Notes: a model not told the origin generated them from the sequence alone. A stretch of 64,000 bases of DNA from a virus (IMGVR_UViG_3300020196_000016:1-64000), one strand, 5' to 3'; counted from the stretch's first letter, positions 8,022 to 50,992 are shown. Translations and numbers: made by a program.

Positions 8022-9389
8022 CTATATATCAATCTGGTCGATAACGTGTGTGCTGCTAAATGATAATTCGCGATAAAACTTTTTCACGAATTCCTTGGTT
8101 ATTTTGGCAATTTCTTTTTTGGAATCTTTATCTCGCAACAACTTCTCAAATTCATCACGAATAATCTTGCGAAGTTCATCTTTTGAAATCTCTTCGTTAA
8201 TAAGTGAACTTTCTTTAAGAACAATTTTTATTTTATTCATGATGATGTTTTCCTGTACACTTCTATTGTATCTTTGGGCCAATGGAATATCTAATTTATC
8301 TAACGAAGGCATTTCACCTTTTATAGAATTATATAGAAGCCCAGAAGCATAATCATATAATTCACGAGTGTTTGGTGATTTTTTTATGCTTTTCAATAAA
8401 TCACTTGGCAGAACATAAGCTTGCAATTTATTTGCTGCAGCAAATTTAGATTCTTCAGCTGTAAGCTGCGAATCAATAAATAATTTAAGCAATATCTTTA
8501 CAGCTTGTGGAAAGATAGATAATTTATCGGGATTCTTTTGTTTAAATCTTTCAACATAAGAAAGAAATTTATCTGCTTCATCTTGAAGATCTGTTTGCAT
8601 TTCAATATGTTGAAGATGATGTGACGTATCTCGTTCATCGCTTGATGTATTATCTAATACATCACGCGGAGGAAGACCAATCTTCCAATCACCAGCACCA
8701 AGAACGTTTGACATTGTATTTTGAAATAAATGCTGCAATTCATGACGAACACTGGTTTTGGTATCTTCTAATTCTGTATCAATATTTTCTATTATTGCTG
8801 GTATGCTTCGTGAGCCAACAGAAAGACCAGGTTCAGCTTCACCACGTGGTGTTTCAGTTGGAACAAAGAAAGAAGAATTAAATGTAACAATTATTTCATC
8901 AATATCCGATTTATATAATCCAGCATAATCTTTTTTTGTTGTTGTTCCTCTTGAGCCAAACTCAATAACAAATTGAATATCATTAACATCTTTGTTTTTA
9001 AAATAACGTTTTAAACGGTTTTTAAACGCTGCTGGTTTTATTCTGCCACGCAGATAGGTTTCAAGTTCTGGCCAAGCAACAAGGGCCATTATAAATTGTT
9101 CTATGGATATAGCTTCAATGACTTCACCATTCTTTATAACAGTATTAACATCTAAATCTCCAGTAAACCCAACTTGTCCAATGTCGCCAATTTCTTTTGC
9201 ATATTTTTTTTCAATTTCTTTTAAAAGTTTCCCATATCTTGTTGATAGCCTGGGATTAGAACTAGATTGTTTATTTATAAAATCAATAACAAGTTTTACA
9301 TAAGCAGCACGATAAGCACGTGTTACCTCATCAACAGTTTCTTGTGGAACTGGAAGTGTTCTGCTTTCTATTAGTTTAATTTTGATCAT
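8022..9389 (-). CDS. Hypothetical protein with HExxH zinc-metallopeptidase motif
   Basis: VRHELQH; 455 aa. Confidence 0.65.
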   Translation of the reverse strand: MIKIKLIESRTLPVPQETVDEVTRAYRAAYVKLVIDFINKQSSSNPRLSTRYGKLLKEIEKKYAKEIGDIGQVGFTGDLDVNTVIKNGEVIEAISIEQFIMALVAWPELETYLRGRIKPAAFKNRLKRYFKNKDVNDIQFVIEFGSRGTTTKKDYAGLYKSDIDEIIVTFNSSFFVPTETPRGEAEPGLSVGSRSIPAIIENIDTELEDTKTSVRHELQHLFQNTMSNVLGAGDWKIGLPPRDVLDNTSSDERDTSHHLQHIEMQTDLQDEADKFLSYVERFKQKNPDKLSIFPQAVKILLKLFIDSQLTAEESKFAAANKLQAYVLPSDLLKSIKKSPNTRELYDYASGLLYNSIKGEMPSLDKLDIPLAQRYNRSVQENIIMNKIKIVLKESSLINEEISKDELRKIIRDEFEKLLRDKDSKKEIAKITKEFVKKFYRELSFSSTHVIDQIDI

Positions 9390-10516
9390 TTCTTTTTAAC
9401 TGTATAAGATAGGGAGTTTGCTTTTTCTTTACCGCTAACATCTGGGTCATCTGGATTTTGGCTATAAACAGCATATGGTTGTGGTTCAAGCTTTAGCCAA
9501 TTTGTTCCAGTGTGTTTAAATCTTGTTCCGCGAAGTTCTGGATTTCTTTCTAATTGCGGATCTGTTTCAAAAAATTCAATACGATTTCCGAAACCAAATC
9601 CATATTCTTTTCCTTGACTGTCAGTTACAGTATATGCATTGTTTAACATTTTTGCAAACTCTGGATATCCACCTTGTTGCAAGGCCGAATCATTGTGGTA
9701 TAGTTTGCTAAGGTAGTTGATGATACCAGCTTTTTGAAATTTGCCTTTTGGATAATAATCATATCCTTCTACTGTAACTGGTTCAGTTATTTGTAAAGGA
9801 TTCTCGACGTTCTTTACAACTGGTCTTGGTGATGCAACAGCGTATCTTGGAATAACAACTGATTTATCTTTCTCACCAATAAATTGTTTTATATCTCTCG
9901 TGAAATTAACATCATCTTTATTTGCAACTGTTAAAACGCCATTTATTTCAGCAGTTATACCAGCTTGCTTATCTTCTGCATTAACGTTATATAATATTTG
10001 TTTTAATTTTTTTTCTGCTTCAACTTTGAGTTTTCTTTTCTTTTCATTACTTGTCGACATGTTTGCAACAGCATTTGTTAATAATTCTGATTCACCGTAT
10101 ATAAAAATACGGTCAATTTCTTTTTTTATTTCTTCTTCGGATGCAGTTGAACCAACAAGTTTTGCAAATTCGGGTATATCTGCAATTATTCCTGTTAATG
10201 ATTGTTTCATTTTTGCCAACTTAAGGGCATATGCACGATGACGACCTTCGTGATAAACAACTTCTGCATTACCAGAATCGTCTACATTAACTGATAGTTG
10301 AACTTCACCAGCTTTTTTTGGGTCAAAGTCACCTTCAATTCTTTTGCCTTCAAATGCTTCATCTTTGATCATTTTCATTAATTCTGCATCTGTTGTTAAT
10401 GCGAGATAATCACCAACACGGAATTTAACTGGAACTCTTACATTTTCAAGCAATAATTGCCGTTTTGGTTTAGCAAAGCTATGCCAAGCATTATAAAACT
10501 GTTTGTAATTTGTCAT
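9386..10516 (-). CDS. Hypothetical protein with ParB/Srx-like motif
   Basis: HEGRHRAYAL; CTATTTAT motif just upstream. Confidence 0.65.
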   Translation of the reverse strand: MTNYKQFYNAWHSFAKPKRQLLLENVRVPVKFRVGDYLALTTDAELMKMIKDEAFEGKRIEGDFDPKKAGEVQLSVNVDDSGNAEVVYHEGRHRAYALKLAKMKQSLTGIIADIPEFAKLVGSTASEEEIKKEIDRIFIYGESELLTNAVANMSTSNEKKRKLKVEAEKKLKQILYNVNAEDKQAGITAEINGVLTVANKDDVNFTRDIKQFIGEKDKSVVIPRYAVASPRPVVKNVENPLQITEPVTVEGYDYYPKGKFQKAGIINYLSKLYHNDSALQQGGYPEFAKMLNNAYTVTDSQGKEYGFGFGNRIEFFETDPQLERNPELRGTRFKHTGTNWLKLEPQPYAVYSQNPDDPDVSGKEKANSLSYTVKKK

Positions 10517-10742
10517 ATGAAATAAATAGTCAAAAGCAAAAATCCCGGAAAAATTCCCAGGAAATTTTTTATAAGCCCGATTTTAGGAGATGTTTTATAA
10601 TTTTTGGAAATTTATAACGCAGTGCGAAAAGCAAAAGTTTACAAAAATTTCCCGTGTGTCGTGGGGGTACTAAGTACAGGAACAGCCCCCACCCGTCCAT
10701 GGGGGACATACATTCCGGTGTGAGGGGGATCACCCCGTTATA

Positions 10743-10931
10743 CTACACATTATCAGCGGGAATAAAATCGCAAACCTGATCGGTCAAGTGCTGAAACATA
10801 TCAGCGCATTCGGCAACGGTTGCGTGATCGTCTTCGTCAAAAGCCAAGAGGATACGGTTGTCGACCACCACAAGCGAATACATAAGAGCAATGTTGCAGA
10901 ACTGATCGGTGAGGCGTTGGTTGTTGTCCAT
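10743..10931 (-). CDS. Small acidic protein, probably leaderless
   Basis: ATG 6 nt after TTGACC-N17-TACAAC (10938-10966). Confidence 0.7.
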   Translation of the reverse strand: MDNNQRLTDQFCNIALMYSLVVVDNRILLAFDEDDHATVAECADMFQHLTDQVCDFIPADNV

Positions 10932-11012
10932 ACGTTTGTTGTAGCCCGCAGATCAGATCGGGTCAACAACAGATCAGGCGATCAGGTGATGCGGCTCACA
11001 ATCTTTTTTTTC

Positions 11013-11071
11013 TTGCAAGATTCATGCCAGCTTGCCCGAGCCGGTTCGGCGGGGCTGGCACGCACCTTGCA
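11013..11071. repeat. Double sigma54-motif palindromic element, copy 1
   Basis: TTGCAAGATTCATGCCA-gcttgc-CCGAGCCGGTTCGG-cggggc-TGGCACGCACCTTGCA. Confidence 0.9.
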
Positions 11072-11106
11072 TGCCGCCCGCCGTTGTGATTTAGATCAAG
11101 GTGTGA

Positions 11107-11454
11107 TCACGGTCGCTTGCTGGGCGCACCCGTGGCAACCAAGCCCATACCGGGGGCAAGCGTACAGCGAAGGGCAGCACGCGCAATCTCCAAGCCCGCA
11201 GCCGTAAGTTGCAGATTATTGGGATGCCCCTTGACAAGCCGACGAGCGCGCAAGCTGTCGAGGATACCGGGGCGAGCCATGAGCGGGTGACGCAGCGCAA
11301 GGAGATCAACGCTGGGGCGCAGACCGTTTTGTGCAGCGAAAGCGATATCAGCGATCACAGCAACCTGACGCGGGCCACACGTCGTGGTCGAACCGTAGTT
11401 GTGGCGAGCGAGGGTTTCGATCTTCTTGCGACGAGCGGCGACATTCTGCGACAT
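11107..11454 (-). CDS. Basic protein, possible winged-helix DNA binder
   Basis: LDSLRARRLV...LQLTAAGLEIA; promoter TTGACG-N17-TACGAT at 11538-11566. Confidence 0.6.
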   Translation of the reverse strand: MSQNVAARRKKIETLARHNYGSTTTCGPRQVAVIADIAFAAQNGLRPSVDLLALRHPLMARPGILDSLRARRLVKGHPNNLQLTAAGLEIARAALRCTLAPGMGLVATGAPSKRP

Positions 11455-11670
11455 TGTCTTGTCTCTCTGTTCGGGTTCTCTGACTCTGGCGCTACTTGCG
11501 GTGCCGGGGTCCGCTTACTTGTTCCGGCTATGCGCTTATCGTACACGGTGATCGCTAATCCGTCAACCATGACGAACGCGCAGATCACTTCGCCTTGTGT
11601 GCTCCGTCACACCGTCAGGTCTTGCGGGGGCTGGAATGATCTGTTAGTGTTCGTTTTCTTTTTTCTGCCC

Positions 11671-11729
11671 TTGCAAGTTCCATGCCAAGGTGCCCGAGCC
11701 GGTTCGGCGGGGCTGGCATGCCTTTTGCA
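11671..11729. repeat. Double sigma54-motif element, copy 2
   Basis: TTGCAAGTTCCATGCCA...CCGAGCCGGTTCGG...TGGCATGCCTTTTGCA. Confidence 0.9.
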
Positions 11730-11753
11730 TGCTGCCTGCCGTTGTGAGTTAGA

Positions 11754-12023
11754 TCACCACCAAGGAGGGAAGTCGGGCAAGGTGCGCATCAAGCGCATGT
11801 TTTCCATGTTGAGCTGCGTCACAGCGATCAAATGAGCGGCGTCACCGTCCCGGTTGTTTTCATCGGCCAGCGAGCGGTTGATCTCGCCCCGTTCGCTGTG
11901 ACGCACCGCACGACGGACACGGCGCTTTGCGAAACGACGAGCACCGGGGGTCGACCAGCACATCGGGCAGAGACAAGCGGAATGACCAGCGAGGTTTGTC
12001 AAGTGTCGGGTGTTGTCGTTCAT
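11754..12023 (-). CDS. Small Cys/Arg-rich protein, probably leaderless
   Basis: ATG 7 nt after TTGACA-N17-TAGAGA (12031-12059); CLCPMC. Confidence 0.6.
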   Translation of the reverse strand: MNDNTRHLTNLAGHSACLCPMCWSTPGARRFAKRRVRRAVRHSERGEINRSLADENNRDGDAAHLIAVTQLNMENMRLMRTLPDFPPWW

Positions 12024-12055
12024 GGTTTGATCTCTATCAGAGTGATCGGGTTGTG

Positions 12056-12274
12056 TCAACGGACAACGAGAACGGATCGCAGCCGCCCCTTGTGACGGAA
12101 GGTGCGCGAGGCGCAGACAGCGTTGTGATCGTCATCGTCCTCGTCAGCGTGCAAGTAAGCAACGAACGCAGCGCGATCCGCAACGGGATCACTATCCGAC
12201 AGATCCTCATCATCGGTCCAAACGCGGTTGGCTTCGTCCGGGGACAGCAGCGAGAGCGGGATCGTGGTGTTCAT
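12056..12274 (-). CDS. Small acidic protein, probably leaderless
   Basis: ATG 6 nt after TTGACA-N17-TACCGT (12281-12309). Confidence 0.65.
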   Translation of the reverse strand: MNTTIPLSLLSPDEANRVWTDDEDLSDSDPVADRAAFVAYLHADEDDDDHNAVCASRTFRHKGRLRSVLVVR

Positions 12275-12392
12275 ACTGCAACGGTAGCGGGAGATCACCG
12301 GGCTGTCAACCATCTCGCAGGTACTTGTTGTGTGCTGGATCACTTGCAGTGTGCCCCTCGCGGTGTTAGTGTTCGTTTTCTTTTTTCTGCCC

Positions 12393-12451
12393 TTGCAAGT
12401 TCCATGCCAAGGTGCCCGAGCCGGTTCGGCCGGGTTGGCACAGTTTTTGCT
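12393..12451. repeat. Double sigma54-motif element, copy 3
   Basis: TTGCAAGTTCCATGCCA...CCGAGCCGGTTCGG...TGGCACAGTTTTTGCT. Confidence 0.9.
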
Positions 12452-12484
12452 CCTATGACCTGAATCACACAATGTGCTATTGAC

Positions 12485-12512
12485 AAAAAGAAGCCCACCG
12501 ATTAGGTGGGCT
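12485..12512 (-). terminator. Intrinsic terminator
   Basis: AGCCCACC/GGTGGGCT stem followed by TCTTTTT on the minus strand. Confidence 0.7.
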
Positions 12513-12553
12513 CCCGTGCTATTGCTGTCCCTTGCGGGCTATGTATCTGCCGA

Positions 12554-12814
12554 TCAGTCGTTCTTATCCCAACCACGGGGAGCGACGATGCTATCGTGCG
12601 GAAACTCGCCGCAGATCGGGTGATCCAGATAGACCGACATGTCGCGGAGGATGCGATCCGACGACCCATCATCGTACCACGAAAGTTCGTACTCCAGATC
12701 ATCATCCGACAAGTCGGTGTCGCAGAAGGTGATCATGTCATCCTTCCAGACCCACGAATCATCCATCATGTAAGCAACGGGAATGTCAGCGAGCGAGCGG
12801 GTGTTGTTTGCCAT
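12554..12814 (-). CDS. Small very acidic protein, probably leaderless
   Basis: ATG 6 nt after TTGACG-N17-TACAGT (12821-12849); Asp-rich. Confidence 0.7.
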   Translation of the reverse strand: MANNTRSLADIPVAYMMDDSWVWKDDMITFCDTDLSDDDLEYELSWYDDGSSDRILRDMSVYLDHPICGEFPHDSIVAPRGWDKND

Positions 12815-12934
12815 GCGCTAACTGTATCGGGTGATCTCTCTGCCGTCAAGTCTGGTGCCGGTGTTGTGTGTGATACAGGACACTTGCGCTGTGCGGCTGG
12901 ACTTGTTAGTGTTCGCTTTTTTTCTTTTCTGCCC

Positions 12935-12993
12935 TTGCAAGATTCATGCCAGCTTTGCCGAGCCGGTTCGGGCCGGCTGGCACGGAAGTTGCA
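12935..12993. repeat. Double sigma54-motif element, copy 4
   Basis: TTGCAAGATTCATGCCA...CCGAGCCGGTTCGG...TGGCACGGAAGTTGCA. Confidence 0.9.
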
Positions 12994-13113
12994 AGACCCC
13001 TGCCGGTGATACAGATCACAGCGGGGCGCACACTATCAGATCACACCGGGGCAGTCAATAGGTTCCTGCGTGATAGGGCTCACAGCGTAGGGTGATCTCC
13101 ACGAGCGAGACGC

Positions 13114-13142
13114 TTGACGGATTAGTGATCGCCCGGTATGAT
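13114..13142 (+). promoter_or_regulatory. sigma70-type promoter
   Basis: TTGACG-N17-TATGAT with GATC in the spacer. Confidence 0.8.
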
Positions 13143-13202
13143 GACGCATCGCCGGTCGCGGTCCCGGTGAGACAGCAAACCAGATCGCTTGTGAGGCACG
13201 CT

Positions 13203-13601
13203 ATGTCGCAGAATGTCAATCCCGTTCGCAAGGTTCGCGTCACGTCGCAGCAAGTGGCTTTTCTCATGCTGACCGAGGGTACTGCTGCTGTGCAGAAGCT
13301 GCACAACACGCCCGGTCACGAGATCGCGGCTGCAACCTTTGACGGTGCGGTGGATCTGCTCGCTTCGCAGACCGAGGCCCGCAACGCTCTGGAAGCTCTG
13401 CGTCCGGAACTGCTGGGTGATTCGGAGCCCGGTGAGCGTGGTCGTCCCGCTGCAAAGATCGGTGAGGACCGCAACTATAAGGTCCAGCAGGTTGGCGACG
13501 GTGATCCCTTTATCCGTCTGCCCGTGAGCCTTCTCGGTGCTGTCAAGGGCGATGTGGTATCGGTCACGTTTGGCCGCGACGGGATCACGGTAAAGACTTG
13601 A
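13203..13601 (+). CDS. 132-aa protein with C-terminal AbrB/MazE-like swapped-hairpin domain, paralogue A
   Basis: YKVQQVG...FIRLPVSLLG...GDVVSVTFGRDGITV; GAGG RBS; same length as paralogue B. Confidence 0.8.
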   Translation: MSQNVNPVRKVRVTSQQVAFLMLTEGTAAVQKLHNTPGHEIAAATFDGAVDLLASQTEARNALEALRPELLGDSEPGERGRPAAKIGEDRNYKVQQVGDGDPFIRLPVSLLGAVKGDVVSVTFGRDGITVKT

Positions 13602-13651
13602 AGTCAAGCGGTTAGGGGTGATCCGCATCACAAAACCCCCGGTGGATGGTG

Positions 13652-13710
13652 TTGCATGTTTCATGCCACCCCGTCCGAGCCGGTTCGGCAGAGTTGGCAT
13701 GGGTTGTGCA
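13652..13710. repeat. Double sigma54-motif element, copy 5 (degenerate -12 boxes)
   Basis: TTGCATGTTTCATGCCA...CCGAGCCGGTTCGG...TGGCATGGGTTGTGCA. Confidence 0.85.
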
Positions 13711-13726
13711 TGCCGTCTGCCGCTAT

Positions 13727-13906
13727 CTAATCAAACTGCCACAACCAAAGGCCCCGTTCAAGATAAGAGCAAGCCGCATGCATGGCCTGCTTTTTATCAT
13801 CTTCGAACGGTGCATGACGGGCGAGGTGAAACGCCATAGCGATACACTCTTCGCGGGTTATTTCTTCGTTGTTAGGCTTTGACGGTGGGAGAAGAAAGCG
13901 AAGCAT
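13727..13906 (-). CDS. 59-aa hypothetical protein (below ORF-track cutoff)
   Basis: AAGGA RBS; MLRFLLPPSKPNNEE...WLWQFD*. Confidence 0.6.
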   Translation of the reverse strand: MLRFLLPPSKPNNEEITREECIAMAFHLARHAPFEDDKKQAMHAACSYLERGLWLWQFD

Positions 13907-13917
13907 GGTTTATCCTT

Positions 13918-14091
13918 TCACTCGTCGTTCAGTTCATCAAGCAGATAAGCGGCATAATCGTCCATCCAATGCAGCTTTGCCATGGCCACTTCCTTTTCAT
14001 CATGAGTGTAGCCTTCCGCGAGTTCCATCAGATAACCATCGCGAATCAGGGTTTGGATGGACGGGGTCTTGCGAGCGGTGTTGTTCGGCAT
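13918..14091 (-). CDS. 57-aa acidic protein, probably leaderless (below ORF-track cutoff)
   Basis: ATG 6 nt after TTGACG-N17-TAGAAA (14098-14126); MPNNTARK...DELNDE*. Confidence 0.7.
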   Translation of the reverse strand: MPNNTARKTPSIQTLIRDGYLMELAEGYTHDEKEVAMAKLHWMDDYAAYLLDELNDE

Positions 14092-14151
14092 GAGTTATTT
14101 CTAACACCCGATCACACCCGCGTCAACAGCAGATCTATTTTTTTTCTTCCC

Positions 14152-14210
14152 TTGCACAGATCATGCCAGCTTTCCCGAACCGGTTCGGCCGGGTTGGCAC
14201 GGAAGTTGCA
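14152..14210. repeat. Double sigma54-motif element, copy 6 (perfect core palindrome)
   Basis: TTGCACAGATCATGCCA...CCGAACCGGTTCGG...TGGCACGGAAGTTGCA. Confidence 0.9.
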
Positions 14211-14348
14211 AGGGGAGCCTGTGTGATGCTTGTCACAGCTTGTCACAGATCACAGCGGGGGCGCATACTATCAGATCGCACCCGGCCAGTCAAGGGGGAT
14301 CGGTGTGACCCTGCACACGCGATCTTGTGAACTCCCGCTGCGTTAGTG

Positions 14349-14377
14349 TTGACGGATCGGGTGATCGCGGGTATGCT
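14349..14377 (+). promoter_or_regulatory. sigma70-type promoter
   Basis: TTGACG-N17-TATGCT with two GATC in the spacer. Confidence 0.8.
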
Positions 14378-14454
14378 GTTCCTGTCCCGAGCGGTTGACG
14401 GCCACCGGGGACGCTAACTAACCGACCGTCGTTGCCAGAGACAAGGAAAAGACC

Positions 14455-14853
14455 ATGACCCAGAATACCGCTCCCGCTCGCAAGGTTCGCGTGACCGCCC
14501 AGACCGTTGCGTTTCTCGCCCTCACGGAGGGCACGGACGCTGTTAGCCGTCTGCATGCTACCCCCGGATCGGAGATTGCTCCCGCTACGTTTGACGCTGC
14601 CGTCGAACTTCTCGCAAGCCAGCCGGAAACCGCTGCCGCTCTTGCGGGTATGCGTGCCGATCTGTTCGGGGATGATGCGCCCGGTGAGCGTGGGCGCCCC
14701 GCTGCCAAGGTTGGCGAGTCCCGCACCTATAAGGTCCAGCAGGTTGGCGACGGTGATCCGTTCATCCGTCTGCCGGTTTCGCTCCTCGCCGCTGTCAAGG
14801 GGGGAACGGTCACGGTGACGTTCGGTCGTGACGGGATCACCGTCCGGGCGTGA
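14455..14853 (+). CDS. 132-aa protein with C-terminal AbrB/MazE-like domain, paralogue B
   Basis: Colinear with 13203-13601; AAGGA RBS. Confidence 0.8.
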   Translation: MTQNTAPARKVRVTAQTVAFLALTEGTDAVSRLHATPGSEIAPATFDAAVELLASQPETAAALAGMRADLFGDDAPGERGRPAAKVGESRTYKVQQVGDGDPFIRLPVSLLAAVKGGTVTVTFGRDGITVRA

Positions 14854-14896
14854 TCTGCGGTTGACAAGCCGATAGCCCCCCGGCTACAATAGGGGG

Positions 14897-15077
14897 CACG
14901 GTAAGCCGGTTTAGCTTCCCCCGGCGATGTAGCAACGGAAGCCAGAAACGAGGAGTCGCGGTGATCAGACTGTACGATTTAGGGGTGCGGCTTGCCGCCG
15001 CCAACCCATGCGACCGTTAGGGTCAGTGTCGCATGATGCTTAGGGGAACCCGGCCAGAGTGTGCCGGGTTTCTGTTT
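14897..15077 (+). ncRNA. Candidate small RNA (or 19-aa ORF transcript)
   Basis: TTGACA-N18-TACAAT (14861-14890), internal hairpins, terminator AACCCGGC/GCCGGGTT+T. Confidence 0.4.
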
Positions 15078-15091
15078 GTCAAGTGGGGATG

Positions 15092-15107
15092 TGTGATACA
15101 GATCACA
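15092..15107. promoter_or_regulatory. CRP/FNR-family box, perfect consensus
   Basis: TGTGA-TACAGA-TCACA. Confidence 0.7.
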
Positions 15108-15119
15108 ACGGCAGGAACC

Positions 15120-15178
15120 TAGCAAGTTCCATGCCAGCCCCGCCGAGCCGGTTCGCCAAAGTTGGCACGGGTCTTGCA
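15120..15178. repeat. Double sigma54-motif element, copy 7 (flanks inverted)
   Basis: TAGCAAGTTCCATGCCA...CCGAGCCGGTTCGC...TGGCACGGGTCTTGCA. Confidence 0.9.
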
Positions 15179-15204
15179 AGTCAACCGGTCATCGGTTTAC
15201 TGTA

Positions 15205-15263
15205 TAGCACGAACCATGCCAAGGCTCACAAACCGGTTCGGCCACCTTGGCACGATCTTTGCA
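15205..15263. repeat. Double sigma54-motif element, copy 8
   Basis: TAGCACGAACCATGCCA...CAAACCGGTTCGG...TGGCACGATCTTTGCA. Confidence 0.85.
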
Positions 15264-15310
15264 AGCGTTTTTTTCATGATACACCGTGACCCGGATCACG
15301 CGATCCCCCA

Positions 15311-15339
15311 TTGACAGCATGGTGGGCATGCGTTATGCT
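15311..15339 (+). promoter_or_regulatory. sigma70-type promoter facing a non-coding region
   Basis: TTGACA-N17-TATGCT. Confidence 0.6.
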
Positions 15340-15399
15340 ATGCGATCCCCCGGGTGATCCCTGTGTGACCGGGCGCACACCGGCAATCAACCGACTGGG

Positions 15400-16160
15400 T
15401 GGTTGTTTAGCTTGTATAGTGTATGATGAACCGGTGATTATCTATTGTGTATAGTGTATAGCGGGAGATAGGTGAATATCTCTCTATACTATACTCTATA
15501 CCTTCTTTATGTTCTTTATATATCCTATACTGGATATACTATTTCTATATCTGCCGGATTTTCTGTATATCAACCGCTAGATATAGGGCAATCGACCAGT
15601 ATAGCGCGTTGGGCCGATCATGTCAATCGGCTAACGTTATCCGTTTTTGTCTTGATCTACCGGTACCGGTGTGGTATAGTGGCGATGATGTGCCGGTTAT
15701 ACACAATATTTTATACTATCTACATTTTTTTGTATTTTTATTGGGTATTTTCTCTAACGGCTGACTAATTATTTATCTGGTTGTGTGGGGCTTTAATACC
15801 GCCACATTACAGAGTTTTTTTCTTTATTGCTTTATTCCAGCTATATACCGAACAACTTATATCTATATATAGCTATATCCAACAGTTCAGCACACTTAGA
15901 ACTTTTTCAATTAAATTTTAACTGTTTTTTTATCTAAATTTGAATCAAATTTTTTTGGTGTAGCTACCTCTTTATTTAGTTCAAATTTTTATTGTGGTTT
16001 TATTTGGTTCTTTATATATCGTTCTATATCTCTATAGGTTCTCTTTGTTATTAATATCTTTTTTTTATATCCCTTTTATTGCTTTATTTGTTAAAAAAAT
16101 TTGGGTCGGTTTTCGTTCTCGATTCTTTCTCTATATCTCTTTATTTATTTCTATTTTTCA
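15400..16160. other. Non-coding, T-rich low-complexity tract
   Basis: TATA/CTAT/poly-T rich with only implausible ORFs. Confidence 0.6.
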
Positions 16161-17319
16161 ATCAAAAATTTTTTATGGGGGGTGGAGGTAGGTGCTTCCA
16201 TGGTTTATTTATATCCATTAGTAATCCTGCTAATTCATAATGGGCATATACATACCGGTTTTGTTCTTTAAAGAATTTTATATATATTCTTTTTTTATTG
16301 TCTCTGGATAGTTTTACTTCTGTTATATATCCTATCTCTCCTTCTGAATCTATTAGGATATCTCCTGGTGTAAATGTTGTTGGTTTATTCATATATGTTT
16401 ATTATTTCTTTATTGAATATCTCTCTAATATCTTTCTATCTATAAACTTATCTAACTCCTCTTCATCATAACTTTCCTTTATATATTCTCCTACTGGAAG
16501 GTTTACCCATGATTCTAATAGGTACATGGTTGAACCATCCCAGTCATACCATATCTTTATTACTGTTGATAGTTCTTCTTTATCATACTTCCATACCATT
16601 ACATCTCCGATATTGTATTTGGTATGTTCTTTAAACTTCATTGTTTATCTTTTTGTCTATCATATACTCTTTTATATAATGTTTTTTATTCTCCATTCCC
16701 GCAAATATAATTGTGTATATTCCACCTGTAATATTATCAGTTGATGGTGTTGCTTTTATTATTATTCCTATTTTGCCCATATAGTATTCTTTATATAAGA
16801 ACTTCTCTATATCCAACTGTTCATCTGGTTCTGGATAGCTATCTATTGTTTTTATTATATCTCCCGGTTTATACTTCATTCTATGTTCTCTTTTATCTTG
16901 TATTCTATCTCTTCTTCATATACAAGATGTTTTTTTCCTTCTATGCCCGCAACTAATACTTGGTATATAACAACAGGATATTTTGTTGCTTTGGCTATAT
17001 CATATACCGGATCAGTTGTCCCCAGTATTATTCCCACTTTGTCTCGGAATATCACATAGTCATTATAATTCATTTTCTTTATCTTGACTATGTCTCCCAC
17101 TTGATATTTCATATATTCTTTCTATTATTAATCTTTCTAATACCCATATTGGTTCATTTGGTTTTCCACATATAAGAATTCTATAATCAACTTCTTCATT
17201 CCACATTCTGCTTTTTATTATTATTCCTATCTTCTCCTCATATTGTGTATTGATTGTCTTTACAATATCACCTATCTGATATTTCATTTTCTTTCGCCAT
17301 CATTATTCTTCTATCTAAA

Positions 17320-22780: not shown

Positions 22781-22824
22781 ATCTTACTCCATTAGTGCTG
22801 GGTGATCTGCCGTGGGTTCGCAGC

Positions 22825-22853
22825 ATTATAGCACGGCAAACGAAAAGACGCAA
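22825..22853 (-). promoter_or_regulatory. Early sigma70-type promoter
   Basis: TTGCGT-N17-TATAAT, TG extension, downstream AGATCAC. Confidence 0.8.
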
Positions 22854-22882
22854 GGATCAAGTGAACGCCGGGATTTAGTTGC

Positions 22883-23823: not shown

Positions 23824-24546
23824 TTACTGAATAATGTTAAGGTGTTTCTTTGCGACAGCCGATGCCTTATTCTTTGCAGCACCGTGAGCAGTAAAGCCAA
23901 TCACATACTTACGATCAGAGCGAGAACAAAGAGCACCATTAACTCCACCGCAGTTAGAGCAGTTAGTCTTTTCATTATATTCAGCAGGACAACGAACAAT
24001 CATATTGCCTGCTGGTGTCTTATCGTTCTTCCAATCGTTTGGCGTATCGTGGGGCATGATCGTGACGACCGGAGCAATATTCAGCGTCAAGTATTCGTCA
24101 GCTTGCGCTGCGTTATTACTTGAAAGGTTGATCGTGAAACCATTATCGTTAGCATACATGATGCCGATATTGTTTTCAAGAATAGTTGGATCCTTGTGGG
24201 TATAAGCAAACCCACGCTTTCCCCTATTAGCATCAACCAACTTCTTCAACATTTCAAGATTAATATTTTCCTTGCTTCCCGGAAGATCGCCAGCAACACC
24301 ATATCGCCAAAGCTGATTAGGCTTGATATTCTTAATCTGCTTCAAGAGAGCAGCAAAAGAAATACCGTTATCGTTCACACGATCCCAATGAATACGAACC
24401 AATCCACCACGAGCATAACAACCACCATTATACAGGTGGCAGGAAGGGGGACAAGTGTTTCGGGAAACAATAACAGCAGGAATGTTTCCAATCTTTTCAT
24501 TCTTGGAACGCGCAGTAAAACCAAACTTAATCATAACAAACTCCAA
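23824..24546 (-). CDS. Cys-rich gp88-like protein, possibly Fe-S binding
   Basis: N.KIG, TCPPSC...GCYA, R...AGD, YTH, CPA...CSNC...LC, IGF.AHG. Confidence 0.65.
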   Translation of the reverse strand: MEFVMIKFGFTARSKNEKIGNIPAVIVSRNTCPPSCHLYNGGCYARGGLVRIHWDRVNDNGISFAALLKQIKNIKPNQLWRYGVAGDLPGSKENINLEMLKKLVDANRGKRGFAYTHKDPTILENNIGIMYANDNGFTINLSSNNAAQADEYLTLNIAPVVTIMPHDTPNDWKNDKTPAGNMIVRCPAEYNEKTNCSNCGGVNGALCSRSDRKYVIGFTAHGAAKNKASAVAKKHLNIIQ

Positions 24547-24612
24547 TTTTGGATTGTTGATTGGTTGTTTATTTACCAGTTTGTGTTCTGTGATCTACGT
24601 CTGACTTCCCGC

Positions 24613-24641
24613 ATTATAGCACGGAAAGACGAGAAAAGCAA
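24613..24641 (-). promoter_or_regulatory. Early sigma70-type promoter
   Basis: TTGCTT-N17-TATAAT, TG extension, downstream AGATCAC. Confidence 0.8.
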
Positions 24642-24665
24642 GAGGGAATAAATGGATAACTTGGA

Positions 24666-32675: not shown

Positions 32676-32752
32676 TGGTAGACCAGGTGGGAGTTGCACC
32701 CACGACATTCCGCTTATAAGACGGACTCTCTAACTAACTGAGATACTGGTCC
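32676..32752 (-). tRNA. tRNA-Ile(UAU)
   Basis: Cloverleaf; anticodon arm TCCGT-CTTATAA-GCGGA; encoded CCA. Confidence 0.85.
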
Positions 32753-32755
32753 ATA

Positions 32756-33034
32756 TTATAGTTTGTGATAGTTGAAATAAAACTTTTCAAGATCAGTTGT
32801 GTAAATACATTTCATTTTCTGTGAATAGCATTGTACCAACTTTACATCTTTAAGAACATTTACATTTTGCGGAGATACAAGACCCATTACAATAACAACA
32901 TCATCTTTTTCCATTCTAATCAATTCAAAATTATTAGACGGCTTCAAGATATTATATTCATTATGACGAATCCAGAAAGAGCCGGGACAAACACTATTCT
33001 GGAAAGTGCTTTTCATTCTATTCTTGCGTCCCAT
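32756..33034 (-). CDS. Hypothetical protein
   Basis: 92-aa ORF in operon. Confidence 0.6.
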   Translation of the reverse strand: MGRKNRMKSTFQNSVCPGSFWIRHNEYNILKPSNNFELIRMEKDDVVIVMGLVSPQNVNVLKDVKLVQCYSQKMKCIYTTDLEKFYFNYHKL

Positions 33035-33041
33035 ATATCAC

Positions 33042-33275
33042 CTATTTTGCTACTGGATATACAATAACTTCTTTGTTTCTTACCCAATCATTTAGCAAAG
33101 AAAAGCCGACTTTATTATCTTTTGTCTGATCGTAATTATCATAATATTCCCAATGAAAAAGATAATATCCTCCACCATACCAATCATTGTTATTGATTCT
33201 ATCAATTATAACACCATTGTATACCAGAAACATTGGATTGTTGACTATCACTAAATCGCCAACATCATATTTCAT
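33042..33275 (-). CDS. Small KOW/SH3-like family protein
   Basis: MKYDVGDLV...VYPVAK. Confidence 0.7.
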   Translation of the reverse strand: MKYDVGDLVIVNNPMFLVYNGVIIDRINNNDWYGGGYYLFHWEYYDNYDQTKDNKVGFSLLNDWVRNKEVIVYPVAK

Positions 33276-33481
33276 ACAGAAATAACTTTCCACTTTCCGA
33301 ACTTGATAAGTTGCTTGATTGTGGATGGATCAGCACCCCACTCTTTATGATCTCCAACATTCCAAAGCATAATATAGTGATACAGCTTATCGTCCGGGAC
33401 ACGAAGAACAACACCGGTACCACCAGTATCACTTTGGATCAAATCACCAACTTTGATATTGAGATTATTGTTTTCAGTCAT
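33272..33481 (-). CDS. Small KOW/SH3-like family protein
   Basis: IKVGDLI...GTGVV. Confidence 0.6.
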   Translation of the reverse strand: MTENNNLNIKVGDLIQSDTGGTGVVLRVPDDKLYHYIMLWNVGDHKEWGADPSTIKQLIKFGKWKVISV

Positions 33482-33494
33482 ATTTAACCCAATA

Positions 33495-33833
33495 TTAGAA
33501 GTCAAAATCAAGAGAGCGATTCAAACGAATATTAAACGGAGTTTCCCAAGTTCCCTTTGATGTATAATCATTATCATCTTCACCAAGAACGTGATATGAA
33601 TAATCATCTTGATTAAGATCTTCAAGTTCTTCAATAAATTCATTTACTGCCTTGACTTCCGGATAATCATCATACCACTTTACATCGTGAAACTCAACAA
33701 GTTTCCAGCCATTACATTCATGAATCTTGGAACCATCAATAAAGTTAGCAGCAACACGATCTTCCATTGTCTTGATAAGTTCAGAGAACCTTTCATCTTT
33801 GAGAGCAAGAAGAACATCACTACGATAACCCAT
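33495..33833 (-). CDS. Conserved phage protein (MGYRSDV family)
   Basis: MGYRSDV...VKWYDDYPEV...LGEDDND; GGAG RBS. Confidence 0.7.
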   Translation of the reverse strand: MGYRSDVLLALKDERFSELIKTMEDRVAANFIDGSKIHECNGWKLVEFHDVKWYDDYPEVKAVNEFIEELEDLNQDDYSYHVLGEDDNDYTSKGTWETPFNIRLNRSLDFDF

Positions 33834-34039
33834 ATTATCTCCGGTAGTTAGTGTTAAAGAAATGGTGGATATATCTAACGCTTTCCACCGAAACGTCTTA
33901 CCAGATATGGTATAATGATATAACGCCAAAGACACTTGACGGGAGAACACAATAATGTAGCCTACTATGCTAGTTGACTCCTATTCACATAGTAAGTATC
34001 ATAAACACAGTCATGTCATAATCATGCTCATGTTTATAC

Positions 34040-34125
34040 TGGTGCCGAGAGTGGGACTTGAACCCACAAGATATTGCTATCAGAAGTTTTTGAGACTTCC
34101 GTGTATACCATTCCACCATCTCGGC
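34040..34125 (-). tRNA. tRNA-Leu(CAA)
   Basis: GAAGT-CTCAAAA-ACTTC arm, long variable arm, GGTTCAA, CCA. Confidence 0.92.
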
Positions 34126-34218
34126 ATAACCCTATCTGTATAAGATAGGGTATTTTTTAGGCAAGAGTCAATAGGCAATTCTTAAAAATCTTTACAACAC
34201 GAATATCAGTAAAATCAA

Positions 34219-34419
34219 CTACATCTCCACCCTCAAGAGCCACAATATTATCATCGGTTGTGAAAATCCAAGCAGCACCTTCATCACAAATAATAACATC
34301 ACCTGGCTCTGGTTCAGGAACTTATTGATTTGATTAATTTTAGTAAGCAGATCGTTATCTGCAATACTAACTCGGAATTGAATTTCTTTGAATGACTTAT
34401 TTTTTTGTTTATTGATAAT
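34219..34419 (-). pseudogene. infC: IF3 C-domain-like fragment with ATT start, fused out of frame to another gene remnant
   Basis: AGGAG-N6-ATT; KEIQFRVSIADNDLLTKINQINKFL, then similarity ends. Confidence 0.6.
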
Positions 34420-34607
34420 ATAATACTCCTTTGTTAATAATATACCGACGCCAATTCTGGCCTGACATTCTCAATAACAATCTCATCTTCTGGAACACTT
34501 ACACTAATAACTCGTTCATGCTGAACGGTATCAGTATCACCGTGAACAAAAGAAGCGAGAAGAATAAAAAACTTACTAAACATATCTCTTTCTCCTTTAT
34601 AATACAA

Positions 34608-34683
34608 TGGTGGATCGGGTGGGGGTCGAACCCACGACCAATAGATTAAAAGTCTACTGCTCTACCAACTGAGCTACCAATCC
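34608..34683 (-). tRNA. tRNA-Lys(UUU)
   Basis: AGCTCAGTTGGTAGAGC D-arm, CTTTTAA loop, GGTTCGA, CCA. Confidence 0.95.
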
Positions 34684-34766
34684 AAAAAAGAATCCGTTTT
34701 TATCACAGAACGGATAAACTGTTTAGTGTTTTGCGGTTCAGAGTTTACACTAACAACTCCATTATC

Positions 34767-35828
34767 TCACTTCGGCTTCTTACCAGTCAGCAGTTCCGAA
34801 AGAAACTTGGAAGGCGAAGTTCCATCAACATTGATCTGGTGAAGAGCAGTAGTATTTTCCACCATACCCTTACCAAGAACATGCCACATCTTCATAGCAG
34901 CTTCGGAAGGCAAGCTGATGAAATACCGTGCAAGATTCTCCAACTGATCCTTGGGCATCTTCTTTGCAAGGAAACCCTTGGCCTCAATCTTATCAATAAG
35001 AGCACAATGCTCAATGATACCAAACTTCTTCACCTTATCAAACTTACCATTGACGATAACGTCTTCGGGCGTAACCTGACGATCATACTTCTCCACGAAG
35101 TCGTGAAGGGCAATCGCAGCCTCATAACCAACAAAACCAACTGCGATATTGCGAATATCCTTCATGTTGTTTTCGCTGAACATATCAGCAGAAGTCAACA
35201 CATCATTACAACGCTTCCACGAACGACGAGAAGGATACACCTTATTGGGTTCAAAGTCACCCTTATGCTCAAGGTGTTCACGATTCAGATTGATGAAATC
35301 GTAAACAAACTGATTAGTATTGTTCTTCGCCCAAGTGAGCCAATCTTCCACAGTAGGCGCAAGATCAAAGGTAGTCCACCGATCAAGTTCGGCGGGGTCC
35401 ATCTCACCAACCTGATATTGTGCTCCGCTTTCGCCACCGTTGACAGCGGCAACAATAAGCGTATCGGGATGGAGAGTATGACCGTTCAGCTTACGAGAAT
35501 CAGTAAGTTCAAAGATACCTTGACGAACTTCAATAACTGCACGATCAACTTCATCAAGGAAGAGGAGAACGGCATTATTACACGCCATCTTGAACCAGTC
35601 CGGGGGATTCCACTTGGTAGAATCACCGGAGATCACGGGCAACCCAACAAGATCACCCTCGGTCATCTGTGATGCACGGCGTTCAACAACCGGAAGATTC
35701 CTTTCCGCTGCAATCTGATACACAACTTGCGACTTGCCAATACCGTGACGACCACGGAGAAGAAGCGGCAACTTATTATCCAGAATCGGCTTAGCGATAC
35801 GGAAGAAAGTATTGAAATCGAGCTGCAT
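34767..35828 (-). CDS. MoxR-like AAA+ ATPase
   Basis: GRHGIGKS, LFLDEVDR, AAVN, MDPAELDR, PSRRSW; promoter at 35907-35935. Confidence 0.9.
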   Translation of the reverse strand: MQLDFNTFFRIAKPILDNKLPLLLRGRHGIGKSQVVYQIAAERNLPVVERRASQMTEGDLVGLPVISGDSTKWNPPDWFKMACNNAVLLFLDEVDRAVIEVRQGIFELTDSRKLNGHTLHPDTLIVAAVNGGESGAQYQVGEMDPAELDRWTTFDLAPTVEDWLTWAKNNTNQFVYDFINLNREHLEHKGDFEPNKVYPSRRSWKRCNDVLTSADMFSENNMKDIRNIAVGFVGYEAAIALHDFVEKYDRQVTPEDVIVNGKFDKVKKFGIIEHCALIDKIEAKGFLAKKMPKDQLENLARYFISLPSEAAMKMWHVLGKGMVENTTALHQINVDGTSPSKFLSELLTGKKPK

Positions 35829-35972
35829 TGTTTTCTCTCTCTAGTTTATCGTTATCTGACTTAGATCATCGTGCGGGATTGCCCGGTGATCTTTCCGACC
35901 CGTTGCATCATAGCATGGATCGCGTTCGCTGTCAACACACACTAACTTGCTTACAGTATAAAATACAGTAAG

Positions 35973-36047
35973 TGGAGCCAACGACAGGATTTGAACCTGT
36001 ATCTCGCACATTACAAAAGTGGAGTTTTACCGTTAAACTACATTGGC
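35973..36047 (-). tRNA. tRNA-Thr(UGU), weak anticodon stem, possibly pseudo
   Basis: Good acceptor and T arms, CCA; TTTGTAA loop with only 3 Watson-Crick stem pairs. Confidence 0.65.
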
Positions 36048-36092
36048 GTGATTGGTGTTTTTATTAAGTAGAACACCAAAACTACAATACCA

Positions 36093-36803: not shown

Positions 36804-36918
36804 ATCGTATCCACCTTTCTACTATATTGTTTCTGCTTGTGATCTTGTGTGGGTTTCCAGCATTGTATCACGAACGGTGGAAAACCGCAAGCACAAAGAT
36901 CGGTTATTGTATTATTAC

Positions 36919-50209: not shown

Positions 50210-50992
50210 TCAACGTTTATTTTTTGATTCTTTTACAAGGCGGGCAGCAACACGACTTGTTAATCTTTCTACCATTTCTTGCATTTGTTCTTCTTCGTCA
50301 CCTTCTGGTGGCGCGTCACCTTCTGGTGAAGCTTCTTCGTCACCTTCTGGTGAAGCTTCTTTGTCACCTTCATCACCGCGTGAAATATCCATTTGAACTC
50401 CATATTGGGATGCCATATTTTTTAATGTATCCAACATGTTGTTGATTAGATCTTTCATTTTTGAAGCGTGTTCTGGACTTTCACCGGCAGCATCACTTGA
50501 AGTATCAGCGCCTTCTGGTGCTTCTGGAGCATCCATTTCTTCTTCCATTTCAGCTTCGTTATAACCTTCTTCCAGTGATTCACTTACAACTTCGAATTCA
50601 CCACGATTTGGTTTACGATCACTGGCATTTGATTTGCCACCGGTTTCATCAGCGACACTTACATTACCTTTACCAACTGAATGATGTGTTCCTGCTTTTA
50701 GTGGCTTCATTGTTCCCGGTGATTTAACAGATTCAGCACCATCGATTCCTTGTTTTGGCTTTGCAACACCTTTAACTTTTTGTTTTGGTGAACCGGGACG
50801 GCCTTCACTTTCTTTACCTTCTTCTGTTACATCGCCCTCTTCAACAACTTCTTCTTCAAGGGCTTCTTCTTCTAATTGACCTTCTTCTTGTTTATAATCT
50901 GATTCTTTCAAGAATTTATCGGTTAATGGCTGTAGATTAGCCAATTTCATAAAGCTGCGGATTGTGCTTTCTTCTAATAGTTTCTTACTCAT
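50210..50992 (-). CDS. Acidic low-complexity protein, possibly structural or scaffold-like
   Basis: LLEESTIRSFMKLA N-terminus, Glu-rich, EGDEEASP repeat; terminator at 50159-50181. Confidence 0.7.
   Translation of the reverse strand: MSKKLLEESTIRSFMKLANLQPLTDKFLKESDYKQEEGQLEEEALEEEVVEEGDVTEEGKESEGRPGSPKQKVKGVAKPKQGIDGAESVKSPGTMKPLKAGTHHSVGKGNVSVADETGGKSNASDRKPNRGEFEVVSESLEEGYNEAEMEEEMDAPEAPEGADTSSDAAGESPEHASKMKDLINNMLDTLKNMASQYGVQMDISRGDEGDKEASPEGDEEASPEGDAPPEGDEEEQMQEMVERLTSRVAARLVKESKNKR

Follow-up and report, generated by a model that had tools for sequence, protein, structure and literature searches.

Control of host transcription by phages is known almost wholly through sigma-70, by way of anti-sigma proteins, sigma appropriation, and phage-encoded polymerases. 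Sigma-54 (RpoN) forms a stable closed complex on DNA and depends on an ATPase for firing. Enhancer-dependent sigma-54 promoters of bacteria, among them divergent pairs with a common upstream region, are exemplified by glnAp2, pspA, zraP/zraSR, and hyc/hyp. The published sigma-54 consensus is TGGCAC-N5-7-TTGCT (accessible part of PMC12316311). In Escherichia coli, as far as the accessible part of one study goes (PMC4591121), the sigma-54 holoenzyme binds most of its sites in an inactive form and represses where a site overlaps another promoter, and sigma-54 can bind DNA without core enzyme in vitro. A sigma-54-like promoter has been reported for Pseudomonas phage YuA (accessible part of PMC10914365). 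The promoter-early stem-loops (PeSLs) of T4-type phages are described, in the accessible part of PMC2839356, as repeated small regulatory cassettes that carry a strong sigma-70-like promoter and stand between the small non-essential genes of a hyperplastic region. The present analysis concerns an array of 59-bp elements in the viral DNA IMGVR_UViG_3300020196_000016:1-64000 (the window, i.e., the whole stretch of 64,000 nucleotides analyzed, which is the first 64 kb of an 82,594-bp IMG/VR viral record with a CheckV completeness of 46%). At the level of sequence, the 59-bp element has the make-up of a double-stranded protein-binding module of two divergent sigma-54-type -24/-12 sites, and we infer that host sigma-54 polymerase reads these arms.

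A repeat search of the window revealed a single family with eight copies. Together with direct reading, it recovered all eight 59-bp elements at the starts that had been claimed for them by an earlier inspection of the DNA alone (here, the sequence-only reading). The elements, E1 to E8, lie in a GC-rich island of the genome (Table 1). Each copy is laid out as T(T/A)GCA-N7-TGCCA, a 26-nt centre, and TGGCA-N7-TGC(A/T). The centre measures 26 nt in 8/8 copies, which confirms the fixed length that had been claimed, and TGGCA-N7-TGC is present in all 16 arms. Two motifs of the sequence-only reading hold in part. The centre CCGA(G/A)CCGGTTCGG is exact in six of the eight copies, the centre of E7 ending in ...TTCGC and that of E8 starting with ACAAA. 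The TTGCA box is exact in six of eight right arms and four of eight left arms, the remainder being TTGCT, GTGCA, ATGCA, or GTGCT. Comparison with chance expectation revealed strong enrichment of the arms and the core. The pattern TGGCAY-N6-TGC occurs 17 times in the window versus 0.75 +/- 0.88 times in shuffles; 16 of these matches are element arms and one is located at 50623. The core AACCGGTTCG, with at most one mismatch, gave 17 matches versus 1.32 expected, 16 of which are the eight sites seen on both strands. In the complete record of 82,594 bp, exact matches to the skeleton TGCCA-N11-CCGG-N11-TGGCA number eight, and each of them is one of the elements.

Conservation was analyzed in 86 distinct 60-mers from 26 sources, with identical copies counted once, corresponding to 172 arms. 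The loci were retrieved with a 20-base skeleton of the element, and hence at least one copy per locus had to match those bases; further copies found with up to nine mismatches allowed still retain the 20 skeleton bases. The blocks GCA, TGCCA, CCGG, TGGCA, and TGC are invariant or nearly invariant among the 86 elements, whereas the spacers carry 0.2 to 0.7 bit versus 2.0. The conserved blocks are centred at positions 4, 15, and 26 and at positions 35, 46, and 57, corresponding to an 11-bp period on one face of the helix. The arms were scored with consensus patterns. TGGCA and TGC are invariant across the 172 arms. Position -27 is C or T in 169 arms. At position -21, 96 arms have C and 75 have T; at position -20, 123 have G and 46 have A; and at position -15, 100 have T. 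Position -11 is occupied by A (126 arms) or T (46 arms) but never by C or G. The pattern YTGGCAYR-N5-TGCW fits 165/172 arms and is found at 15 places in the whole record, every one of them an element arm. The stricter patterns TGGCAY-N5-TTGC and TGGCAC-N5-TTGC fit 98 and 46 of the 172 arms, respectively. ChIP-verified sigma-54 sites of E. coli, as listed in Table 1 of PMC4591121 (accessible part), show the same TGGCA[C/T] and A/T alternatives. The assignment of the arms to the sigma-54-type -24/-12 sites, proposed in the sequence-only reading, is thus supported by the sequence down to its degenerate positions. Back-to-back pairing is the rule: 178 of the 202 distinct arms in family loci are paired in this way, and the 24 orphan arms are mostly cut by locus ends, have another centre length, or represent chance matches in AT-rich DNA.

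The element also has a polarity. CCGAG is present on exactly one half of the centre in 56 of the 86 elements and on both halves in none, which allowed these 56 elements to be oriented. Of the oriented elements, 34/56 have a T-rich or pyrimidine run next to the G side, and 1/56 has one next to the other side. The order on the gene strand is element, A-tract, sigma-70-type -35 and -10 boxes, and start codon. Outward-facing TTGAC within 40 nt was found on the G side in 27/56 cases and on the other side in 16/56, with one and three cases for the inward-facing controls. The gap between TTGAC and the element clusters at 24 nt (12 cases) and at 34 to 35 nt (10 cases), i.e., one helical turn apart. 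A TGTGA-N6-TCACA box is located on the other side and starts either 4 nt (16 arms) or 13 to 15 nt (29 arms) after the -12 C; 127 of 194 arms are without a TGTGA half-site within 40 nt. By sequence comparison, the element keeps a locked phase with a sigma-70 early promoter on one side and, in some of the copies, with a TGTGA-N6-TCACA box on the other.

Analysis of the neighbouring promoters revealed 10 sigma-70-like promoters in the island versus 3.3 +/- 1.7 in shuffles, and a looser pattern assigned one to eight of the nine genes, in agreement with the earlier statement that the neighbouring genes have sigma-70 promoters of their own. Five genes are near-leaderless, with a -10 box that ends 6 to 7 nt before the ATG. 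No hexamer is more strongly enriched in the island than GTGATC/GATCAC, with 33 copies versus 2.2 expected. A GATC-centred box lies in the spacer of each of eight island promoters, and in six of them this box includes a perfect GTGATC or GATCAC. Outside the island, the AT-rich remainder of the genome carries canonical TTGACA-17-TGnTATAAT promoters in locally GC-rich patches, often followed by AGATCAC (Table 1), and GTGATC/AGATCAC has the appearance of an operator or leader motif used throughout the phage. As reader of the TGTGA/GTGATC box, a regulator of the phage itself is no less likely than CRP, because AGATCAC trails the sigma-70 promoters of the bulk and GTGATC lies inside promoter spacers. 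Ribosome-binding sites of the GGAG type precede 74 of 139 phage genes. The canonical sigma-70 promoters and Shine-Dalgarno (SD) sites indicate that the phage depends on a host with a standard sigma-70 system.

A divergent locus provides information about the core of the element. The 455-aa gene on the left of the island is syntenic in the clade, and a profile of this gene retrieved the 124-kb contig L049. This contig carries a GC-rich island adjoining the homologue of the 455-aa gene, two genes of the 132-aa family that is also encoded in the window, and eight back-to-back arm pairs, whose centre of 10 nt is not conserved and contains no palindrome. This short-centre array was found in IMG/VR in L049 only, and more distant relatives of the 455-aa gene showed no island in the stretches fetched. 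L049 keeps the pairs without the palindrome; the divergent arm pair is therefore the core unit, and the 14-bp palindrome is an addition of one sub-clade. The sequence-only reading had proposed a dimeric protein on the palindrome that contacts two sigma-54 molecules. As a general design, this proposal is contradicted by L049, which lacks the palindrome and whose arms are shifted by 16 bp relative to the forms with a 26-nt centre; a phase difference of this size argues against one rigid complex of a central dimer and two sigma-54 molecules. Clustered sigma-54-like arms, alternating or back to back, were also observed in unrelated viral contigs (L040, positions 1-130; L044, 7880-8262; L047, 575-1170), and L040 has five such arms within about 120 nt.

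To compare gene content, 11 loci were cut at the elements and the pieces were clustered into cassettes. Cassettes are gained, lost, and reordered exactly at the elements. The window has the order C, E, B, F, A, D, A,., G. An extra cassette K stands between A and F in L014 and L032, A adjoins B without F in L015, L026 has the order A, D, F, D, D, A, and L001 has the order C, H, I, A, J,., A. Both L001 and L002 carry H, I, and J in place of E, B, and F of the window. By this comparison, the elements mark the joints of cassette exchange in a fast-shuffling block of small early genes.

The explanation favoured here, with a rough probability of 0.4, is that the elements are activator-dependent, poised divergent promoters that also modulate the adjacent sigma-70 promoter. 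Host sigma-54 RNA polymerase would dock on both arms as a closed complex, each arm being a poised promoter that requires an activator. With an active enhancer-binding ATPase in the host, the promoter-side arm would read into the downstream cassette and the opposite arm would read antisense into the upstream cassette. Bound polymerase that has not fired would adjoin the A-tract and the -35 box of the sigma-70 promoter and could modulate that promoter. The 14-bp central palindrome of this sub-clade might add a site for a dimeric regulator, for which the predicted winged-helix proteins of the island are candidates. The use of canonical sigma-70 promoters and SD sites elsewhere in the phage, which implies dependence on host polymerase, counts in favour of this explanation. 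So do the sigma-54 specificity of the arms, their back-to-back pairing, their conservation as sequence rather than as a stem, the coupling to neighbouring signals, the cassette differences at the elements, the failure to find a sigma-70-family gene in the four records searched, and the reported precedent of YuA.

Several observations weigh against poised promoters. The host may lack rpoN: the five near-leaderless genes would be equally compatible with, for example, Actinomycetota, a group without rpoN (accessible part of PMC12316311). Neither Sigma54_activat nor Sigma54_DBD was detected in five phage records (82.6, 82.4, 36.4, 18.3, and 124.4 kb; about 344 kb), two of which extend far on the side of the island that the window record barely covers; an activator could still be supplied by the host. 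This result extends to the whole record the earlier remark that no enhancer-binding ATPase is encoded in the window. A recognised enhancer site is likewise lacking; candidate activator sites are the central palindrome and the TGTGA box, the latter about -79 or -88 relative to the opposite arm. In the window, just seven of the 16 arms have a gene start ahead of them within about 250 nt; the remainder are directed at gene ends, at one another, or at DNA in which no gene was called, and E5 separates two convergent genes. E7 and E8 have opposed inner arms, with predicted starts at 15189 and 15195, about 6 nt apart. This arrangement makes no sense for ordinary promoters, yet the two arms are kept in every locus. 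RNA started at the promoter-side arm would have a leader of at least 50 nt without an SD site in front of genes that are apparently built for leaderless translation. Finally, single-strand folds of the eight copies reach -14.6 to -29.3 kcal/mol (z of -1.2 to -3.0 versus shuffles); folding better than in shuffles results from the self-complementarity of the invariant blocks.

This folding, the imperfect palindrome, and the intergenic position are what recommend the element as a hairpin or cruciform, i.e., as a terminator, an RNA element, or a structured recombination site resembling attC or REP; attC sites were historically named 59-base elements. The reading has largely failed already and is very improbable. 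Mirrored variable columns of the 86 elements gave z values of -4.6 to +0.3 for Watson-Crick complementarity versus shuffles, and the column pair 28/33 is A-C in 35, A-T in 25, G-T in 21, and G-C in none of the 86. With G-U pairs allowed, 71.5% of the cells pair in the 56 elements oriented by internal asymmetry versus 73.7 +/- 0.6% after shuffling (500/500 shuffles at or above the observed value), and the covariation score of the same elements is 0.107 versus 0.126 in shuffles. Compensatory changes are thus lacking and pairing lies at or below the expectation from column composition, as anticipated by the sequence-only reading, which had argued from unpaired spacers for selection on double-stranded DNA. 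An intrinsic terminator was rejected because on the gene strand an A-run follows the element in E1 to E4 and E6, the T-run, 5' of the element on its own strand, being on the wrong side. A PeSL-style stem-loop terminator was rejected on the same ground and for the absence of pairing selection, and some elements lie between divergent genes. An integron attC site was rejected since the sequence is kept but the pairing is not, and since the cassettes have their own promoters and occur in both orientations; no Phage_integrase domain and no tyrosine recombinase were found in the record, which is 46% complete. Rfam gave nothing above threshold. A scan for the element skeleton in about 185,000 prokaryote species, each represented by a single genome, revealed five stretches, four of which are single chance matches (Hydrogenophaga, Chloroflexi) without TTGCA boxes or core. 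The fifth is a 7.4-kb copy of the phage island (L010) binned into a metagenome-assembled genome (MAG); this MAG (about 50% GC, 1.6 Mb) lacks the other phage gene that was looked for and was treated as a binning artefact rather than as the host. A host REP, BIME, or MITE family, named in the sequence-only reading as a possible refutation, is ruled out by the lack of any multi-copy cellular counterpart in these genomes. It is likewise improbable, if less so, that the repeats serve mainly as stretches of homology, as recombination joints or a mobile promoter cassette in the manner of PeSLs, with the sigma-54-like content as a passenger. Loci diverge in the order and content of their cassettes precisely at the elements, short-read assemblies break there, and PeSLs behave likewise (accessible part of PMC2839356). 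Even conservation would be expected in that case; instead, the sigma-54-specific bases and the core are fixed while the spacers vary, and L049 retains the same specific bases despite its replaced centre.

The remaining alternatives concern what binds the arms and to what effect. The arms might bind host sigma-54 or holoenzyme and never fire, acting as a sponge or as a local competitor or insulator of sigma-70 promoters. This non-productive docking is rather unlikely. In its favour, both arms are conserved regardless of their target, even where they face gene ends or each other, no activator gene was found in the five phage records, and each genome has 16 near-consensus sites. The inactive binding in E. 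coli, the core-free DNA binding in vitro, and the repression at overlapping promoters provide precedents (accessible part of PMC4591121). A sponge, however, needs no pairs, no polarity, and no 10-bp phasing to the -35 box and an operator-like box, and the sites are spread one per cassette joint instead of being packed; a roadblock by bound holoenzyme was effectively ruled out at intragenic E. coli sites (same source, accessible part). The pure decoy envisaged in the sequence-only reading leaves both the polarity and the 10-bp phase-locking to the -35 and TGTGA-N6-TCACA boxes unexplained. That the arrays capture host sigma-54 or holoenzyme instead of making RNA, as a DNA trap and DNA-based anti-host device, is rather doubtful. 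If they did, hundreds to thousands of replicated sites would strip the host of its sigma-54 responses (nitrogen, envelope stress, repair) or, alternatively, trapped polymerase would be held beside the early promoters of the phage; as a way of trapping a host sigma factor on DNA, it would represent a new type of device. Equally doubtful is an arm reader encoded by the phage, a DNA-binding protein or transcription factor to which the sigma-54 likeness is convergent, the element being an upstream site of sigma-70 early promoters. The host may lack rpoN; the 11-bp period on one helix face suits any multimeric binder; the phase-lock to the sigma-70 -35 box at 24 or 34 to 35 nt fits an upstream site; and the island encodes a predicted winged-helix family with several paralogues per island. 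Against this, the degenerate positions (Y at -27, C/T at -21, G/A at -20, only A/T at -11) and the exact -24/-12 spacing in 172 arms are hard to obtain by chance. The winged-helix match is weak (Foldseek E of about 0.05) and has no tie to the arm motif rather than to the abundant GTGATC boxes, and no sigma-70-family gene (sigma-70 region 2) was found in the four phage records searched.

Table 1. Coordinates of the elements, boxes, promoters, and genes (window numbering).
Feature	Position	Strand	Remarks
E1	11013-11071		Between tandem minus-strand genes; left flank T-run; right flank GCCG...TGTGA-type box
E2	11671-11729		Between tandem minus-strand genes
E3	12393-12451		Between tandem minus-strand genes; upstream gene with its own terminator-like hairpin at 12489-12515
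E4	12935-12993		Between divergent genes
E5	13652-13710		Between convergent genes; both arms directed into gene 3' ends
E6	14152-14210		Between divergent genes; centre CCGAACCGGTTCGG fully symmetric
E7	15120-15178		First of tandem pair; right arm opposes left arm of E8
E8	15205-15263		Second of tandem pair; left half of centre degenerate (ACAAA)
GC-rich island	10700-15480		About 55-60% GC (up to 65% locally); holds all eight elements
Perfect TGTGA-N6-TCACA box	15092-15107		12 nt beyond the left -12 box of E7
Similar TGTGA boxes	Starts at 11085, 11743, 12454, 13005, 13617, 14222
Promoters in AT-rich bulk, examples	22781-22882, 24535-24665, 35829-36092, 36804-36918
62-aa gene	10743-10931	-	No known family; promoter-like 10938-10966, -10 ends 6 nt before ATG, near-leaderless
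115-aa gene	11107-11454	-	Predicted winged-helix fold; cassette E; promoter-like 11538-11566
89-aa gene	11754-12023	-	Promoter-like 12031-12059, near-leaderless
72-aa gene	12056-12274	-	Promoter-like 12281-12309, near-leaderless
86-aa gene	12554-12814	-	Promoter-like 12821-12849, near-leaderless
132-aa gene, paralogue 1	13203-13601	+	Cassette A; promoter-like 13114-13142
59-aa gene	13727-13906	-
57-aa gene	13918-14091	-	Promoter-like 14098-14126, near-leaderless
132-aa gene, paralogue 2	14455-14853	+	Cassette A; promoter-like 14349-14377

The gene calls of the island were checked by protein-level conservation in divergent loci, and the nine island proteins gave nothing significant in Pfam or PHROGs. 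The 115-aa family has a predicted winged-helix fold like that of DtxR, MntR, or MarR (pLDDT 75; about 71 residues with a root mean square deviation of 1.8 A), with a Foldseek probability of 1.0 combined with the weak E value given above. Relatives carry at least two paralogues of this family per island, and the first residues, MSQNV, are common with one 132-aa paralogue. The two 132-aa paralogues are 73% identical; their cassette is the most widely kept one of the island and often occurs twice in relatives. The model of the 132-aa protein has a confident helical N-terminal domain and a poorly modelled C terminus (mean pLDDT 68.8). No PDB match was obtained for this family at an E value of 0.001 or below, and an AbrB-like identity was not supported, AbrB ranking 19th with an E value of 3.1. 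For the 376-aa protein encoded at 9386-10516, only the first 24 to 26 residues are conserved in several related loci and the rest of the gene differs, which suggests a shared N-terminal module or a recombination point; a single-protein search with this flank gene revealed no relatives. A near-consensus sigma-70 promoter, TTGACA-18-TACAAT, is located at 14861-14890 and followed by about 180 nt without a conserved open reading frame, and a terminator-like hairpin with a T-run lies downstream of it near 15048-15078. A small RNA at 14861-15080 is possible; its fold reaches no more than a z of -1.6, and the closest match in Rfam falls well short of the threshold.

The rest of the phage has about 32% GC (30 to 37% along the window), so that the island forms a local GC step. 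Both junctions are bridged by contigs of independent lake-water runs: X7 record 17 spans 9800-11671 on the left, and X7 record 24 and X8 record 32 span 14730-16600 on the right. The bridging contigs originate from four runs not flagged as a possible source, and contigs break at the repeated elements. An assembly chimera was ruled out by related contigs with the same island and by these independent-run contigs across both junctions. Short-read contigs of four independent runs end at or near elements (11671, 12393, 12951, and 13026), i.e., the repeats fragment assemblies, and several public contigs of the clade also terminate inside the island. The public runs that contain the island are all lake-water or freshwater DNA runs. 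The sequence-only reading had mentioned Myxococcus, to which nothing in the data points, the DNA having been found in lake-water metagenome runs.

A homologue search with the 132-aa island protein revealed two IMG/VR contigs in which the same element again lies in a GC-rich island between the same AT-rich flanks. The 20-base element skeleton matched only three other IMG/VR contigs; in metagenomes it was found in 27 stretches, with up to 14 strict copies in 9.6 kb. Every longer related locus shows a GC step from about 0.3 to 0.5-0.6, as in the window. The phage has a Pol III alpha of its own and also encodes a GroEL-type chaperonin and a MoxR/VWA pair. No close cultured relative was found, the best DnaE identity being about 30%, and a chaperonin look-up for host clues returned only viral and mixed clusters. 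Four tRNA genes are located at 32676-36047 (Ile-TAT, Leu-CAA, Lys-TTT, and Thr-TGT), all reading A/U-ending codons, and this set would fit a host richer in G+C than the phage. Direct repeats of the TATAGTGTAT type were observed at the right border of the island (15398-15459), and several AT-rich direct repeats of 24 to 28 nt were observed just past it (15909-16298).

The results suggest that these lake phages exploit or sequester a transcription route of the host to which phage research has paid little attention. Two sites at every joint of an early-gene block, fixed in just those bases that sigma-54 recognizes, imply either conditional accessory-gene expression tied to host signalling or capture of the factor, and either outcome would add a new chapter to phage-host regulation. 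The statement of the sequence-only reading that no phage system like this has been described stands in part. A literature search revealed no description of arrays of paired sigma-54-type sites in a phage, whereas the sigma-54-like promoter of YuA and the PeSLs, as reported in the accessible parts of PMC10914365 and PMC2839356, are precedents.

Comparison with enhancer-dependent sigma-54 promoters of bacteria revealed the same -24 GG and -12 GC boxes, the same spacing, and the same degenerate flanking preferences (consensus from the accessible part of PMC12316311). Unlike these promoters, the phage sites stand back to back, 26 nt apart (10 nt in L049), with no room for a looping enhancer, are repeated eight times in 4.3 kb with many arms facing gene ends or each other, and have no activator gene in the phage records searched. 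The consensus sites of E. coli that bind holoenzyme in an inactive form, many of them far from or antisense to genes, are a further likeness; as described in the accessible part of PMC4591121, those sites are scattered, single, and mostly intragenic, whereas the phage sites are intergenic, paired, arrayed, and phase-locked. YuA resembles the present phage in having a reported host sigma-54-type promoter beside sigma-70-type ones, but the accessible part of PMC10914365 describes a single such promoter region and no array of mirrored pairs at every cassette joint. With PeSLs (accessible part of PMC2839356), the elements have in common a repeated regulatory cassette with a sigma-70-like promoter between small genes, whose exchange between copies shuffles genes. 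The same combination was found here, namely, a repeated sigma-70-promoter cassette in a variable region with gene shuffling at the copies, the latter by comparison of the 11 loci only. The palindrome of the lake phage differs from PeSLs in being no stem-loop terminator, given the lack of covariation and the T-run on the wrong side, and in carrying two sigma-54-type sites; in contrast to T4-type phages, the lake phage has no close cultured relative. The case illustrates how regulatory modules act as joints at which phages other than the T4 group exchange cassettes, and how an AT-rich genome maintains a GC-rich regulatory island.

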